NCBI GenBank assembly: GCA_030648615.1
Contig: JAUSHJ010000045.1
Span: forward strand, 25,071 to 89,070
Length of the DNA: 64,000 nt
Reading direction: 5' to 3'
Source: Candidatus Micrarchaeota archaeon
GTDB lineage: Archaea > Micrarchaeota > Micrarchaeia > Anstonellales > Bilamarchaeaceae
Of this stretch, positions 574 to 30,516 are shown in pieces. A model generated the notes under the pieces. The model saw only the letters and a list, made by a program, of their open reading frames with translations. It made no database searches and was not told where the DNA came from. Position numbers and translations under genes: made by a program. Positions within the stretch are counted from its first letter, which is position 1; each line of letters opens with the position of its first letter.

Positions 574-794
574 TTATATACCTCGACATGAGCATCTCTA
601 AGTTATTTAACGCCACTATAATGAGGCGAAGCTTGAACTGGTTTCTCTCGAAACATTCAAGGTATTCGAAGTTAGATCTCGTATCCGTTAGACACGAGCT
701 CTCGATGAAAGTTCAATTTCATCAAGATTAATAATTCTAATCGAAAATTTTAAAATTCTAAAGTTAATTTAAGAGGAAGGATTTATAAAGACTC

Positions 795-1076
795 CTACAC
801 TTTCTTCGCTCGATCTTCAGGTCTGAACATTATTTCCTTTCCGTCTATGTCAAAAGTACTCTTGTCTCCTAGATAAAATCTAAAGGTACAAGAACGTTTC
901 TGTAACTTTTTTTCTTGTCCGACCTTATTCTCAATTACAATTAAATTTTTCGTCTCATCAACTATTTTTCCTTTAGCACCAATCATATTTCTAGAGTGAG
1001 AATTTACAACTTCCACCATAAGACTAATGAATGTTGCATAGAGAATTGTTTGTCTGTTACGAAACATCTGTTGCAC
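795..1076 (-). CDS. rnp1: RNase P protein component 1 (Rpp29/Pop4 family)
   Basis: 93 aa; GAKGKIVDETKNLIVIENKVG core resembles Rpp29; conserved archaeal position between SUI1 and S17. Confidence 0.6.
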   Translation of the reverse strand: MQQMFRNRQTILYATFISLMVEVVNSHSRNMIGAKGKIVDETKNLIVIENKVGQEKKLQKRSCTFRFYLGDKSTFDIDGKEIMFRPEDRAKKV

Positions 1077-1824
1077 CTTGTAAATTTTCTGGAATGTTTT
1101 TCTTTAATGTAAGTACTATGTCAGCTGTAGAAATTTCTCCGTTTAAATACTGAAGAAAGAAAGGTTGTGATTTCCTTGAAGTTAATCCAGTAAATATAAT
1201 TTCAGGATTATTATTTAAATCGATAATTTTTCTGCAGGCAATTAAAACAATTTCAGGTTTTTGTGAAAACAATACCAGTGCATCTGGATTAAGAGCAAGA
1301 AACGAAAGTATATTGTCCATACCTCGCTTAGTTACTCTTGCTAGTTCAAGAAATGAATTTGGATTTCCCATAAAAGCTAGAGAAAGAGTGTTGGATAAAT
1401 GTTTAAAACAGGAGAAAGCTTTTTGACGGGTCGCAATTGCAATCTCAACAAAAAATGCTGGATCCTTGCTAAAAAGGTTAGATGCTGCCTCATATTCTAA
1501 TAGTCTACTAAGAGAATTAAAAACCATGAAAAGACCGTTGTCACTACTTGCTAGAGCCATTTCAACAAACGGAGTAGGGTCAGCTACAAAAAATTTATAG
1601 AATATTGTACTGTATTTAGAATTCTCCAGACGATAGATAGCCCGACTAAGATTTTCATCAGTGAGTGTTGCTTTCAATTTATTGAGTGCGTCTCTTACCA
1701 GTTCGAGTTTTTTATTTGGGTTATCACTATTTATTATAGCTAAGACCATACCGTCAGAGCAACCTGAGCCTACTGCATGTTTGATGCCTTCAGGAGTTCG
1801 TTTTGTTTTTGGTTGAGTTGACAT
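1057..1824 (-). CDS. hypothetical protein, paralog A; shares N-terminal TKRTPExIKHAVGSxCSDG motif with the 1936..2442 ORF
   Basis: 255 aa ORF inserted in the ribosomal operon; N-terminal 20-aa motif plus ~75 nt of ~85% DNA identity with its neighbour; helical C-terminal domain, no family recognised. Confidence 0.5.
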   Translation of the reverse strand: MSTQPKTKRTPEGIKHAVGSGCSDGMVLAIINSDNPNKKLELVRDALNKLKATLTDENLSRAIYRLENSKYSTIFYKFFVADPTPFVEMALASSDNGLFMVFNSLSRLLEYEAASNLFSKDPAFFVEIAIATRQKAFSCFKHLSNTLSLAFMGNPNSFLELARVTKRGMDNILSFLALNPDALVLFSQKPEIVLIACRKIIDLNNNPEIIFTGLTSRKSQPFFLQYLNGEISTADIVLTLKKNIPENLQGATDVS

Positions 1825-1935
1825 AAATAATACCTATAGATATATTGGATAGTGAAGTAAATAAATTACGTACTTTTTGTTTTTCTTAATTCTTCTAAGT
1901 CTAGATAAGTATTAGTTACAATGACGTATTCACCC

Positions 1936-2442
1936 TTAGGATGTAGCCTTATCAAACTTTTCAAGAAATTGAAAAATTTCAGATGTAAATTCTTTTGGAA
2001 AAAAATCAACTAAAATTAGTAAATATTTATTATCCATATTTTCAAAAAATGAAACGAATACTGCATTTTGAACTTCGTCCTTGCTCTCTTCTTGACACCT
2101 CAATATAAATTGTGCAATTCTTTTTGTTAATTCCGTATCTTTTTTTGTAATTGCATCTTCACAAAATCTACGAAAATAACCAAATACAATATTAACTCCA
2201 ATATCACAATCTTCCTTATTATTTTCATAAATCTGTTTAAATTCAGGAAATGAGTTTATAAGTTCTTTAATAAAATTTTTTTCATTAATTTTTGAATTAT
2301 CACTATTTGCTATGACCCAACCCGTACCGTCAGAACAGTCTGAACCTACAGCATGTTTGATATTTTCAGGAGTTCGTTTTGTGCTTGGTGGAGCTTTTTC
2401 TCCTTTTTGTTGATCGCTAGATCGAAGCTGAAAAATTAGCAT
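1936..2442 (-). CDS. hypothetical protein, paralog B; same N-terminal motif
   Basis: 168 aa; its ATG overlaps the SUI1 stop (TAATG), implying translational coupling; contains TKRTPENIKHAVGSDCSDG. Confidence 0.5.
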   Translation of the reverse strand: MLIFQLRSSDQQKGEKAPPSTKRTPENIKHAVGSDCSDGTGWVIANSDNSKINEKNFIKELINSFPEFKQIYENNKEDCDIGVNIVFGYFRRFCEDAITKKDTELTKRIAQFILRCQEESKDEVQNAVFVSFFENMDNKYLLILVDFFPKEFTSEIFQFLEKFDKATS

Positions 2443-2747
2443 TATCTCACTTCTATGCTTTCCTTGGGATAACCGAGTTTCTCAAGAACAGCTGACACAT
2501 TCTTTTTGTGATTACCCTGAAGAATAATTATGCCATCTTTAGATGTACCGCCACAGGCAAACTTGTGCTTAAGCTCACTGGCAGTCTGATCAATATGTTC
2601 CTTTTCTATACCTTGAATAATAGTAACTAGTTTCTTGAATTTCTTGGCAGTAGTATAAATAGTAATTTTATTAGCTCCTTGTTTGTCCAAGACTTCACAT
2701 ACACAAAGATCCTTCAATAAGCCGCATTTGTTGCAAATATCTGCCAT
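2442..2747 (-). CDS. sui1: translation initiation factor SUI1/eIF1
   Basis: 101 aa; C-terminal FACGGTSKDGIIILQGNHKKNV matches the SUI1 fold signature; conserved archaeal position after L29. Confidence 0.8.
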   Translation of the reverse strand: MADICNKCGLLKDLCVCEVLDKQGANKITIYTTAKKFKKLVTIIQGIEKEHIDQTASELKHKFACGGTSKDGIIILQGNHKKNVSAVLEKLGYPKESIEVR

Positions 2748-3080: not shown

Positions 3081-3785
3081 TCACTTTGCAACTGGTTCGC
3101 TCTTAACTACAGATGGAGCTACCGATGGTCTAACTGCAGGTTGTTCTCCTTCAATCGTTTCAGCCGCAGTTATTACCTTTGGCAACGAAAGTACGTGAGT
3201 AGATTTCTTATCTGGAAATACAGTTCCCGGTGGAACTATTCTGACTAAAACACCAATAACACCAAATTTTGTAATTGCATGAAAATGTGCTTCTTTTACA
3301 AGTCTTGCTGGTTCACCTGCTTTTGGTATAAACCCACCTAAAACACGAAGGGTTTTTGCACGACCACCTTTGGACATGACACCAGATGCAACAATTTCTG
3401 CACCCAATGCACCTGCACTTATTATTTCCCTAAGGAAGTAATGTAATATTGAACGTACTTTCTTTCCCATTTCGATGTGTTTTGCAGCTCTTTTTGCCAA
3501 AATTCTTGGTTCTAAAAACTGTTGTTTAACTTCGATAACACTTATCTGCGGGTTTTCAATTTTGAAATCTTTTTTAATATCATCAGTAAGATCGTTGATT
3601 AATTTTCCTCTTTTTCCAATTATTCTTGCAGGATTTATTACTTCTAAGGTGATTCTTGTTACCAATGGAGTTCTCTGAATATCTACGCTAGCTAAACCTG
3701 CACGGTCAAGCTTCTGCTCAAGATATTTCATAATCTGGTATTTGACTATTGGTTCCTCGATAAGTTTGTCTGCATATAACATCAT
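3081..3785 (-). CDS. rps3: 30S ribosomal protein uS3
   Basis: 234 aa; KH-domain region and GAEIVASGVMSKGGRAKTLRVLGGFIPKAGEPA motif. Confidence 0.9.
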   Translation of the reverse strand: MMLYADKLIEEPIVKYQIMKYLEQKLDRAGLASVDIQRTPLVTRITLEVINPARIIGKRGKLINDLTDDIKKDFKIENPQISVIEVKQQFLEPRILAKRAAKHIEMGKKVRSILHYFLREIISAGALGAEIVASGVMSKGGRAKTLRVLGGFIPKAGEPARLVKEAHFHAITKFGVIGVLVRIVPPGTVFPDKKSTHVLSLPKVITAAETIEGEQPAVRPSVAPSVVKSEPVAK

Positions 3786-3786
3786 T

Positions 3787-4491
3787 TCACCTTAGCTGCT
3801 TATTTTGCTTGATATTTGACTCCGAATGTTTCACCTTAGCTGTCTGTTTTGCTTCGGATTTTGCATCATGTTTTACTTCTGATCTCGTATCATGTTTTAT
3901 TTCTGAATGTTCATGCTTTTCTTTTGTATCAGATGCCTCTAATTTTGTATCGTGAACATGTGGTTTTGCTTCAGTTTTAACTTCCTGTTTTGGATCTGGT
4001 TTCTTTATGTCAACCTTCTTCAAAGCTCCAGGAGTCCCTTTAAGGACTATTTCAATTCTAGCAGTGGAAAAGTTTTGTTTCATCTTTCTTCCTTTTGCTG
4101 ATAGTCTACCATAAATCATTTTGGTATTTGCTGCTGCATGAACTACAATAAGATCATTTTCACCAAAACCCTTAACGCGTGCATTTGCAATGGCACTTTT
4201 CACTACTTTTAATACTGCAGCTGCGGCTTTCTTTGGATATCTTCCTTGTCTTCCTCCCAATTCTCTTCTGTGCCCAAGATTCTTATTATGACGAGCAAAT
4301 AAAATTGGAATTTCTCCTTCTGCAGCTTTTTCCAAAAATGCAACAACTCTATCAGCTTTTTTCTGAGTTATTCTACCGCAAACCTGTGAAAGATCTCTTG
4401 TAGATGCATCTACTCCTTCCACTCTTGCGAATGCGAAGGAATTGATATCCTCTTTTGTTTCAAATGAGTAACTTTTTGTCATAATCATCAC
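3787..4491 (-). CDS. rpl22: 50S ribosomal protein uL22 with ~80-aa K/E/H-rich C-terminal tail
   Basis: N-terminal ~150 aa is the L22 fold (GRITQKKADRVVAFL...); C-terminus is low-complexity KHD/KSE repeats. Confidence 0.85.
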   Translation of the reverse strand: MMIMTKSYSFETKEDINSFAFARVEGVDASTRDLSQVCGRITQKKADRVVAFLEKAAEGEIPILFARHNKNLGHRRELGGRQGRYPKKAAAAVLKVVKSAIANARVKGFGENDLIVVHAAANTKMIYGRLSAKGRKMKQNFSTARIEIVLKGTPGALKKVDIKKPDPKQEVKTEAKPHVHDTKLEASDTKEKHEHSEIKHDTRSEVKHDAKSEAKQTAKVKHSESNIKQNKQLR

Positions 4492-4889: not shown

Positions 4890-5641
4890 TCACCTTGAGC
4901 GGCATCCATTGCCTTCTTTGATTTTCTTCTTCCAGTACTTCTGGCTGCTATGTGTCCTACCTTAGAACCTGGAGGTGATCCTCTAGCAATAGTAGTTGGC
5001 TTACCAACGTGGTGCTGTTTACCACCATGTGGGTGGTTATATGCAGACTGGTGAACCCCTCGGTTCATTGGCCAGCGTCTGTGTCTTGCAGTAAACTTAT
5101 GGAATGAATTTCCTGCTTTAAGCATTGGTTTATCCAATCTTCCTCCGCCAGCTGCGACACCAATTTGTGCACGGCATTCGTTGGAAATTATTATTGTTGT
5201 CTTACTTGGCAACCTTAGATATACTACATCATTTTCTTTTGAAATTATATTTGCATAACTTCCTGGTGCGCGAACCATCTTGCCGCCGTCACCTGCATTT
5301 CTTTCAATATTAAATATATAAGCGCCATCTGGAATTCTGTAAAGAGGCAGTACACTCCCTAATAATAGTCTTGCCTGTGCACCGACTTCAATATAATCAC
5401 CAATTGCAATTCCTTCTGGTGCTAGGACATATCCTACTTCACCATTATCATAACGAACACTAATAAGTATGGTATCTCTTGCTGGGTCATCGACTAATTT
5501 CAAAACTTTTCCTCTAAGTACGCCTGTCTTTTCAAGATCATCGTAACTTCTATAGTTCAAATCAGTCTTGAATCTACTTGTTGGAGCAATGTAACGCGGA
5601 CTTGCTGAACCACGTCTCTGTTGTTTTAGTCTCTTACCCAT
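4886..5641 (-). CDS. rpl2: 50S ribosomal protein uL2
   Basis: 251 aa; C-terminal MNRGVHQSAYNHPHGGKQHHVGKPTT... L2 signature. Confidence 0.95.
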   Translation of the reverse strand: MGKRLKQQRRGSASPRYIAPTSRFKTDLNYRSYDDLEKTGVLRGKVLKLVDDPARDTILISVRYDNGEVGYVLAPEGIAIGDYIEVGAQARLLLGSVLPLYRIPDGAYIFNIERNAGDGGKMVRAPGSYANIISKENDVVYLRLPSKTTIIISNECRAQIGVAAGGGRLDKPMLKAGNSFHKFTARHRRWPMNRGVHQSAYNHPHGGKQHHVGKPTTIARGSPPGSKVGHIAARSTGRRKSKKAMDAAQGE

Positions 5642-30063: not shown

Positions 30064-30516
30064 TTAAGGCGATTTTGATTCGTAACCGATGATCTTTTTT
30101 CCTGTTTTTTGTTCTAATTCTGCAAGCATAAGTTTGTAATTATCGAACGAATCGATACGAATCAAAATATGCGACGTATTCATCGTATGTAATGTAAGAT
30201 TCCAGCTAGGATACACACCAAGATAATCATAGAAGCATTCAAATTTCGTGATATCCTTTAAGTTAATTTTTATCTTCTTTTTAGATGTAAACAACCAAAT
30301 CAAATCTGAAGTTATTATTACTCGCACAATTTTGGACAAGAGAGTTAAATAAAATATTGAAGAAACAACGATAAACAAAACGATGAGTGTAACTCCAAGA
30401 TAAATATTTTCACTGACAACCGCGGACAGTATATAAATAAGGATAATGAAGATACCAACATGACAACCTAAAGATAATTGTTCTTCGAAGTCAAAAAGCC
30501 TGCGTTTGTATTCCAT
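30064..30516 (-). CDS. hypothetical membrane protein (150 aa)
   Basis: Two N-terminal transmembrane helices, cytoplasmic C-terminal domain. Confidence 0.4.
   Translation of the reverse strand: MEYKRRLFDFEEQLSLGCHVGIFIILIYILSAVVSENIYLGVTLIVLFIVVSSIFYLTLLSKIVRVIITSDLIWLFTSKKKIKINLKDITKFECFYDYLGVYPSWNLTLHTMNTSHILIRIDSFDNYKLMLAELEQKTGKKIIGYESKSP

Follow-up and report, generated by a model that had tools for sequence, protein, structure and literature searches.

Why two additional open reading frames (ORFs) with a common N-terminus should sit among translation genes is the question raised by a 64,000-nucleotide stretch of A+T-rich DNA (36% G+C; hereafter the window) from a Candidatus Micrarchaeota archaeon (contig JAUSHJ010000045.1). 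The ORF listing and Pfam give the minus-strand gene order as L29, SUI1, ORF168, ORF255, Rpp29, S17, and two extra co-oriented ORFs, ORF168 (168 aa, NCBI Q7S22_05385, 1936..2442) and ORF255 (255 aa, NCBI Q7S22_05380, 1057..1824), do lie between SUI1 and Rpp29, as an earlier reading of this DNA (the original prediction) had noticed. Coordinates are those of the window unless another genome is named, and every gene and gene part of this locus is on its minus strand (-). The original prediction took the common N-terminus for a leader or targeting peptide, or for a domain-swapping cassette, with a role tied to the ribosome or to RNase P. We consider it probable that the locus has a simpler history, in which the N-terminal segment of a family gene was duplicated onto an ORF coding for the Pfam domain DUF7674; ORF168 would then be an ordinary fusion, ORF255 a family member, and the operon site incidental.

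The N-terminal segment common to the two ORFs is real and nonrandom in protein and in DNA, far beyond chance. Residues 5-35 of ORF255 and 19-49 of ORF168 are identical at 23 of 31 positions (BLASTP E 1e-13; the two proteins score 36 bits by phmmer), and the remainder of the proteins is unrelated, their C-terminal parts being different helical domains, as had been supposed. The genes can accordingly be called paralogous over the N-terminal segment and not over their full length. The 20-residue motif first described is genuine and too short, since the similarity runs on through "I.NSDN" to 31 residues, and the ~75 nt at ~85% identity reported with it corresponds to the best-conserved core of a direct repeat that in full spans 103 nt at 79% identity. 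A DNA repeat search and alignment place copy A of this repeat within ORF168 (2291..2393) and copy B in ORF255 (1715..1817), at a spacing of 576 nt; a third copy of the shared motif was not found in the window. ORF255 begins MSTQPK, and copy B starts 7 nt past its ATG in the codon register of copy A. The repeat edges thus fall no more than 7 nt from the ORF255 start and no more than 4 nt from the point in ORF168 where the DUF7674 domain begins.

What ORF255 is became apparent only from sensitive searches. By word-indexed search its sole ortholog is P0002, an 85% identical protein from a groundwater metagenome, encoded in the same place upstream of Rpp29. When a profile of ORF255, this ortholog and the ORF168 N-terminus was run, with no word index, against a set of 1.84e9 representative proteins, 26 matches were obtained at E<=1e-3, 6 of them at E<=1e-10 (best 5e-15), and all are multirepeat helical proteins. 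They are 290-1201 aa long, many match in 2-7 separate stretches, and their repeat unit is helical, ~35 aa long, with a consensus, NPKVAELFVKYPDKFVEIAKAAGENAAEAFEALSN, that appears from these matches to be specific to Micrarchaeota. Organism names on 10 of the 20 matches looked up are Micrarchaeota, Micrarchaeia, Anstonellales or Bilamarchaeaceae metagenome-assembled genomes, plus one Marsarchaeota, whose protein is partial. The family is multicopy per genome, and extra copies can lie close by (L009 2-334 adjoins P0011; L008 1-987 is near P0013).

ORF255 aligns with short and long members of this family from end to end, module to cap (alignment A7). Its N-terminal three-helix module, with the family-conserved Cys22, occupies aa 7-52 (1669..1806; alignment A6, a module hidden Markov model [HMM], and AlphaFold2 [AF2]); four ~35-aa "P..FVEIAkA" helical repeats follow at aa 72-212 (1189..1611), and then a cap motif (FFLQYLNGEISTADIVLTL) at aa 213-245 (1090..1188; alignment A7 columns ~365-390). 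A repeat HMM built from 57 family units gives ORF255 34 bits in total, with units at aa 77-90, 114-145, 150-172 and 179-191. The cap, FFLQYLNGEIS..., closes the repeat array in every aligned family member with the motif F.(Q/E)Y.nG.h.h. Between ORF255 and its ortholog P0002 the ratio of nonsynonymous to synonymous substitution rates (dN/dS) is 0.12 at a dS of 0.65, which indicates purifying selection. These alignments and profiles make ORF255 a genuine short-form representative of an alpha-solenoid family that is uncurated and whose named members are almost only Micrarchaeota. Other short forms ending at the cap are P0015, P0023, P0024 and P0029.

Long forms of the family carry an extra C-terminal domain of ~400 aa, with invariant RGHS, PGSCGS and NTSTGxGQVTN, that is absent from ORF255; this domain defines a sub-architecture of the family and not membership in it. 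It is found in P0007, P0009, P0016, P0017, P0022, P0027, P0028 and others (alignment A8), where the invariant stretches read LHD, NPEYFYTSTNHLLFDRL, FRGHSYSL, LFIPGSCGS and NTSTGRGQVTN, and the His/Cys pattern after hydrophobic strands suggests a putative cysteine hydrolase. No Pfam or PDB relatives of the domain were found. P0006, P0008 and P0013 have a different His/Cys-containing C-terminal region in its place, which in P0006 weakly matches Pfam DUF4347 (25.8 bits; cut-off 24.6).

The closest comparison for ORF255 and its family is with HEAT/ARM/TPR-like alpha-solenoids, with which they share an all-helical composition, ~35-aa units of two to three helices, and N- and C-terminal caps. All structures retrieved by Foldseek are helical-repeat proteins, natural or designed, and none reaches significance. 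The family differs from these scaffolds in having its own Cys-containing module and, in long forms, the ~400-aa domain, and its sequences match none of the named repeat classes in Pfam, NCBIfam or PDB. Pfam contains no significant domain for the repeat family, an NCBIfam scan of ORF168 and ORF255 returned nothing informative, PDB profile searches with the module, ORF255 and the long-form C-terminal domain gave only spurious matches to designed repeat proteins, and a literature search on Micrarchaeota repeat families found nothing relevant. By analogy with other alpha-solenoids, a putative role as a protein-binding scaffold is the generic expectation. The repeat family may be counted as a candidate part of the molecular toolkit of the host-dependent DPANN archaea.

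With the family in hand, the shared segment can be placed: on the strength of profile matches, the supposed free-standing module is the N-terminal domain of this repeat-protein family. A module-only HMM built from the three local copies matches the N-terminal ~100 aa of family members and nothing else, always just ahead of the first repeat (P0018, 36 bits; P0012, 35; P0027, 20; P0020, P0024 and P0015, 11-14 bits). The pattern is helix / G-x-x-C-[SPT] / helix / N-P / helix, or as a signature of ~45 aa, h-T-x3-h-x3-h-G-x2-C-[SPT]-x...N-P...K-h-x-E-h-[KR]-x-A-h, with the Cys invariant in a 16-sequence alignment whose members were picked partly for alignability; P0013 is a Cys-less variant. Against the HMM of alignment A6, ORF255 aa 7-52 scores 75 bits, and ORF168 aa 19-49, covering the first two helices only, 55.8 bits. 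AF2 puts helices at residues 11-17, 24-32 and 36-51 of the ORF255 module, with low confidence. What the family conserves is the Cys and the helix pattern, not the "GSxCSDG" that had seemed diagnostic; even the 85%-identical ortholog reads GPGCSDA. The protein behind a borderline match of the module HMM at 30064-30516 is a membrane protein, and we regard the match as fortuitous.

A ~100-nt repeat at 79% DNA identity over 103 nt between otherwise unrelated genes, with both copies near gene 5' ends, could be maintained as a DNA or RNA element (a regulatory site, a structure, or a recombination site) of which the peptide is a by-product, and we regard this as highly improbable. The module codons alone, compared between ORF255 and its ortholog, have a dN/dS of 0.12 and a proportion of synonymous differences (pS) of 0.42, the same as the rest of the gene, and the module is thus translated and constrained like its surroundings, with no added nucleotide constraint. 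As RNA, the two copies fold into different structures, with z-scores of +0.49 and -0.11, Rfam yields no match, and the peptide remains recognizable in distant family members whose DNA has diverged.

ORF168, the other bearer of the segment, is not a family member beyond its N-terminus, since it has no match to the family repeat HMM. Its residues 58-158 match Pfam DUF7674 (PF24722) at 50.4 bits (cut-off 27; E 2.8e-13) over profile positions 1-106 of 111. P0003, P0004 and P0005 carry a precomputed PF24722 label, in agreement with this call. A word-indexed search retrieved only two DUF7674 homologs, P0004 (127 aa) and P0005 (133 aa), 55-56% identical to ORF168, and both are free-standing and lack the module. 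Each begins MTKINEK, which corresponds to residues 50-55 of ORF168 (SKINEK). The correspondence extends to the codons, with ATG ACA AAA ATT AAC GAA AAG at the start of the DUF7674 gene of locus L005 and AAT TCA AAA ATT AAT GAA AAA in ORF168. Because the homologs start at this junction, ORF168 can be described as 49 foreign residues followed in frame by an entire DUF7674 ORF that lacks its initiator Met. The foreign part (aa 1-49, 2296..2442; BLASTP, module HMM) consists of an MLIFQ start, a linker and the first two module helices (TKRTPENIKHAVGSDCSDGTGWVIANSDN), and the remainder (aa 50-168, 1939..2295; Pfam, homologs and AF2) is the whole helical domain without its own start codon. The AF2 model draws the same boundary: residues 50-168 form a confident helical bundle with a predicted local distance difference test (pLDDT) score of ~90, and residues 1-49, at pLDDT <50, are predicted to be disordered. 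In matching 106 of the 111 model positions and in its confidently predicted bundle, ORF168 resembles the Pfam family; it differs from the two retrieved homologs in its 49-aa extension and in the loss of the domain's own start.

The foreign residues are those of a family-type N-terminus. Five of its members in different genomes (P0007, P0011, P0013, P0017 and P0031) have MF[IVL]FQ at their extreme N-terminus, where ORF168 has MLIFQ (2428-2442), and the linker from there to the module is similar in length. The SUI1/aIF1 gene (2442..2747; Pfam SUI1, 1.8e-17) has a TAA stop that overlaps the ORF168 ATG as TAATG, so that the translational coupling seen earlier stands. That ATG, at codon 1, is the sole canonical in-frame start (ATG, GTG or TTG) before codon 114, and the DUF7674 domain is therefore producible only through the SUI1-coupled start. 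We view ORF168 as a clean example of a start-less foreign ORF gaining expression through the translationally coupled 5' end of a resident gene. Profile searches of the two C-terminal parts thus give an answer for each, DUF7674 for ORF168 and the repeat family for ORF255, and no characterized relative for either: no solved structure resembling the ORF168 DUF7674 model was found, and a literature search on DUF7674 found no paper mentioning the family.

One of the free-standing DUF7674 genes has a setting of its own. In L005, the 3' end of tRNA-Ser(GCU) (3574-3602) is repeated 1.6 kb downstream (5164-5192; 29 nt, 90% identity), with the repeat copy directly upstream of the DUF7674 gene. This attachment-site (att)-like duplication suggests, from its sequence and position, an integrated element beside that gene.

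How the chimera arose is most readily read from the layout of the repeats. The order of events and their consequences for expression, which we infer from the homologies, boundaries, selection and synteny observed, would begin with a family gene translationally coupled to SUI1. A segment of ~473 nt (1818-2290), comprising DUF7674 codons 2 to the end, the stop, a 111-nt spacer and a new ATG, would have interrupted this gene just past the module, with the 103-nt module piece duplicated on either side of the insert. The result would be the present layout, [MLIFQ-linker]-[R]-[DUF7674 codons 2 to stop, 111-nt spacer, ATGTCAA]-[R]-[rest of family gene], where R is the repeat. The upstream copy would mainly supply DUF7674 with a start codon and SUI1-coupled expression, and the downstream copy would remain a functional part of ORF255. 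Recombination between the R copies would be expected to restore an in-frame, canonical family gene of 269 aa coupled to SUI1. We favor a single duplication-insertion because the repeat edges lie near the ORF255 ATG and the DUF7674 junction in one codon register.

The arrangement is like that of partial duplication or fusion chimeras, and of insertions flanked by direct repeats, of which Campbell-type single-crossover integration is an example: an inserted block is bracketed by two copies of a 5' gene segment, of which the upstream one runs in frame into a foreign ORF and the downstream one still belongs to the original gene body. This locus differs in that it has no integrase, transposase or recognizable mobile-element genes, its repeat, at 103 nt, is far longer than the target-site duplications of transposons, and the event is old (dS ~0.6). 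Between the two repeat copies dS is 0.62 and dN 0.17, giving a dN/dS of 0.28 from tiny counts (11 nonsynonymous and 9 synonymous differences). Set against the ortholog dS of 0.65, this makes the duplication roughly as old as the split of the two genomes, and the counts are too small for finer dating. The ORF168 copy has 78% nucleotide identity to the ORF255 copy of the window and 72% to the copy in the sister genome (L002); at sites where ORF255 and its L002 ortholog differ, it sides 9 times with the window and 3 times with L002.

Alternatively, the two genes may have started as tandem paralogs, the upstream one exchanging its repeat body for a horizontally acquired DUF7674 and the downstream one losing MLIFQ and the linker. 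The family is indeed multicopy, with copies close together in other genomes (as in L009/P0011 and L008/P0013), a module-copy dS of 0.62 near the ortholog dS means that the duplication was not recent, and the upstream slot in the sister genome holds a different gene. This course would nevertheless need two independent and precisely placed truncations, and the repeat edges, 7 nt and 4 nt from their respective boundaries and in one register, fit a single insertion better; we consider the tandem-paralog course unlikely.

Several observations weigh against the duplication-fusion account or limit how far it can be taken. The locus is known from two genomes only, for which reason the order of events is not reconstructible, and the sister genome has the ORF255-type MSTQ start without a recognizable upstream repeat copy. 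Because AF2 confidence is low in both models (mean pLDDT 58 for ORF255), the designation "three-helix domain" rests on secondary-structure prediction and conservation. In the 16-sequence alignment, "KNFIKELINSF" of ORF168 aligns with module helix 3, so that the chimera could conceivably still adopt the whole module-like fold. The dN/dS of the ORF168 module copy, tiny as the counts are, is not neutral-looking, and the peptide may thus have a function of its own. Finally, the searches for the module on nonfamily proteins are of limited sensitivity for a ~45-aa domain.

Some of these points lend themselves to another reading, in which the ~50-aa N-terminus is a portable targeting, assembly or processing signal on varied cargo, and DUF7674 is the cargo of ORF168. 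If this were true, ORF168 would be the first case of the module caught on foreign cargo. The module is kept, Cys conserved, at the N-terminus of many family members; its MF[IVL]FQ or MLIFQ start recurs across genomes; the ORF168 copy has a dN/dS of 0.28 and not ~1; and the helix-3-like pattern is retained at the ORF168 junction. On the other hand, one nonfamily cargo is all that emerged from 1.84e9 proteins, 185,579 genomes, 241 million metagenome records, viral contigs and ~640 kb of related loci, and the DUF7674 homologs do without the module. The N-terminal 49 residues of ORF168 are predicted to be disordered, the motif apart from its Cys is not constant even in the ortholog with 85% identity, and no hydrophobic or signal-like region is present. 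We therefore think it unlikely that the segment is such a tag.

A more specific form of the same idea would have MLIFQ and the Cys module act as a recognition or assembly tag that sends solenoid-His/Cys and DUF7674 cargo to a common partner or site in Micrarchaeota, with switching of the locus as a variant: recombination at the 103-nt in-register repeats could toggle between ORF168 plus ORF255 and the single 269-aa SUI1-coupled gene. This we hold to be quite unlikely.

The idea of a leader, targeting or processing peptide fares no better on inspection of the segment itself, which is a family N-terminal domain with only the Cys conserved and with neither a hydrophobic signal region nor a lipobox. 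It is hydrophilic (TKRTPENIKHAVGSDCSDG), and the residue at position -1 to the Cys is Asp or Gly (Asp in ORF168). The pair of genes does resemble ribosomally synthesized and posttranslationally modified peptide (RiPP) leaders, signal or lipoprotein peptides and polymorphic toxins in being adjacent genes with a common N-terminus that differ downstream. Unlike RiPP leaders and polymorphic toxins, however, the C-terminal parts of ORF168 and ORF255 are folded helical domains of 120-220 aa, not short cores or toxins, and unlike signal or lipoprotein peptides the module has no h-region or lipobox, with Asp before the Cys in ORF168. No export, maturation or immunity genes adjoin ORF168 and ORF255, whose neighbors are SUI1, Rpp29 and ribosomal proteins.

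A domain-swapping cassette is not supported, the module having been found on a nonfamily C-terminus only once, in ORF168. Further module-bearing ORFs do exist in relatives, in the form of N-termini of the family; beyond ORF168, no nonfamily cargo was found by the profile search, the DNA-pattern scans or HMM scans of the related loci. A degenerate DNA pattern for the module had no occurrence in the 185,579 genomes or in viral contigs and was found only in the sister contig among the 241 million metagenome records, and a word-indexed search with the 16-sequence module alignment gave no matches, the query probably being too short. The original prediction had counted absence of the motif from homologs against itself, and in the case of ORF168 that is the situation, both DUF7674 homologs being without it. 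A link to antiphage defense was likewise sought without result: PADLOC returned for ORF168 and ORF255 only an insignificant LmuA match (14 bits, E 0.005), PHROGs reached E 0.08 at best, and three scans of viral contigs (module DNA pattern and each protein) were without a match.

There remains the position of the two genes, which had hinted at a role associated with the ribosome or RNase P. A junction survey anchored on Rpp29, with one genome per species for 185,579 species, yielded 80 loci, 61 of which have SUI1 upstream. SUI1 and Rpp29 are separated by <=150 nt in 56 of these 61, including seven labeled Micrarchaeota or Bilamarchaeaceae, and by ~1.1 kb in five of the closest Micrarchaeota (L011, L012, L013, L015 and L022). 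All three of the long gaps examined hold an antisense gene for a DegT/DnrJ/EryC1 aminotransferase of ~365 aa (Pfam E ~1e-98; L011 2834-3937, L012 2884-3978, L022 2855-3940). Given these ~1.1-kb gaps with an antisense DegT gene, the ribosomal superoperon is broken at SUI1-Rpp29 in a whole Micrarchaeota subclade.

L002, the sister genome, has yet another occupant between SUI1 and its ORF255 ortholog, a 142-aa ORF unrelated to the module and to DUF7674. The occupants of the junction (ORF168/ORF255, the 142-aa ORF, DegT) are thus unrelated to one another, which makes it a recurrent insertion point, and position at such a point gives no support for a role at the ribosome or RNase P. Four family members in other Micrarchaeota adjoin V-ATPase and AsnRS genes, PheRS, the SUF system, or GMP synthase, and none is in a ribosomal operon; two of the four have additional family copies close by. 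With the junction uninterrupted in 56 of 61 loci and these four members in nonribosomal contexts, the proposed ribosome or RNase P association loses its footing. As part of the preferred duplication-fusion explanation, it seems reasonably likely that the operon position reflects a lineage-specific soft spot at SUI1/Rpp29 and not a translation-related function. An attractive hypothesis thus gives way to a simpler account, in which there is no evidence that a new targeting peptide is at work at the ribosome or RNase P, and the current understanding of translation and of RNase P is unchanged by it; what is new is limited to a so far uncurated family of Micrarchaeota proteins and a single tidy case of a chimeric gene.

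The stretch after SUI1 in L002 was also considered as a decayed ORF168 5' end and rejected in that capacity: over 170 nt, the DNA alignment score is 22, compared with 16.7 +/- 2.3 for shuffles (maximum 27), BLASTP gives E 1.9, phmmer nothing, and hhalign a probability <1%. The same stretch has features of its own. Between the SUI1 TAG stop and the ATG of the 142-aa ORF (L002 54-230) lie 57 codons in the reading frame of both genes, uninterrupted by a stop and lacking any ATG, GTG or TTG; a stretch of this kind would be open by chance with a probability of ~0.03. The codons after the SUI1 stop, ATT TTT ATT (I-F-I), are reminiscent of MLIFQ. This open stretch might be explained by initiation at AUU, by read-through of the stop, or as a recent relic.

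The remaining features of the locus are the 111-nt spacer between the two ORFs (1825..1935), which is A+T-rich and, judged by eye from the letters alone, has a TATA-like element and a Shine-Dalgarno-like AGGT 5' of ORF255, and the Rpp29 gene (795..1076; Pfam RNase_P-MRP_p29, 2.6e-22), whose start overlaps the 3' end of ORF255 by 11-20 nt. Throughout the 64 kb, ARAGORN found no tRNA gene and no Rfam family reached its gathering threshold.

The spacer between Rpp29 and S17 (574-794, minus strand; L002 1694-1863) is ~97% identical over ~150 nt between the two genomes, and the coding DNA that flanks it is only 83-85% identical (dS 0.65-0.97). It opens with a TATA-like box, TTTATAAA, directly after the Rpp29 stop. 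Within it are a hairpin capped by a GNRA loop and another whose loop is of the CCUCAUU type, the latter seemingly present in L020 and L012 too, on different stems. One possibility is that the S17-L14 operon has in this spacer a conserved 5' leader or regulatory RNA; searches of it with Rfam and ARAGORN were negative, and RNAalifold on the leaders of five genomes gave no consensus structure. The spacer also includes a 51-nt block (~678-728; minus strand ATCTTGATGAAATTGAACTTTCATCGAGAGCTCGTGTCTAACGGATACGAG) that is absent from L002 and in which two small hairpins are possible, and which could be an indel, a mini-insertion or an intron-like element. Farther along, the L22 homolog of 234 aa (3787-4491, minus strand) ends in a low-complexity tail of ~85 residues rich in Lys, His, Glu and Ser (...KHEHSEIKHDTRSEVKHDAKSEAKQTAKVKHSESNIKQNKQLR), unusually long for an archaeal L22.

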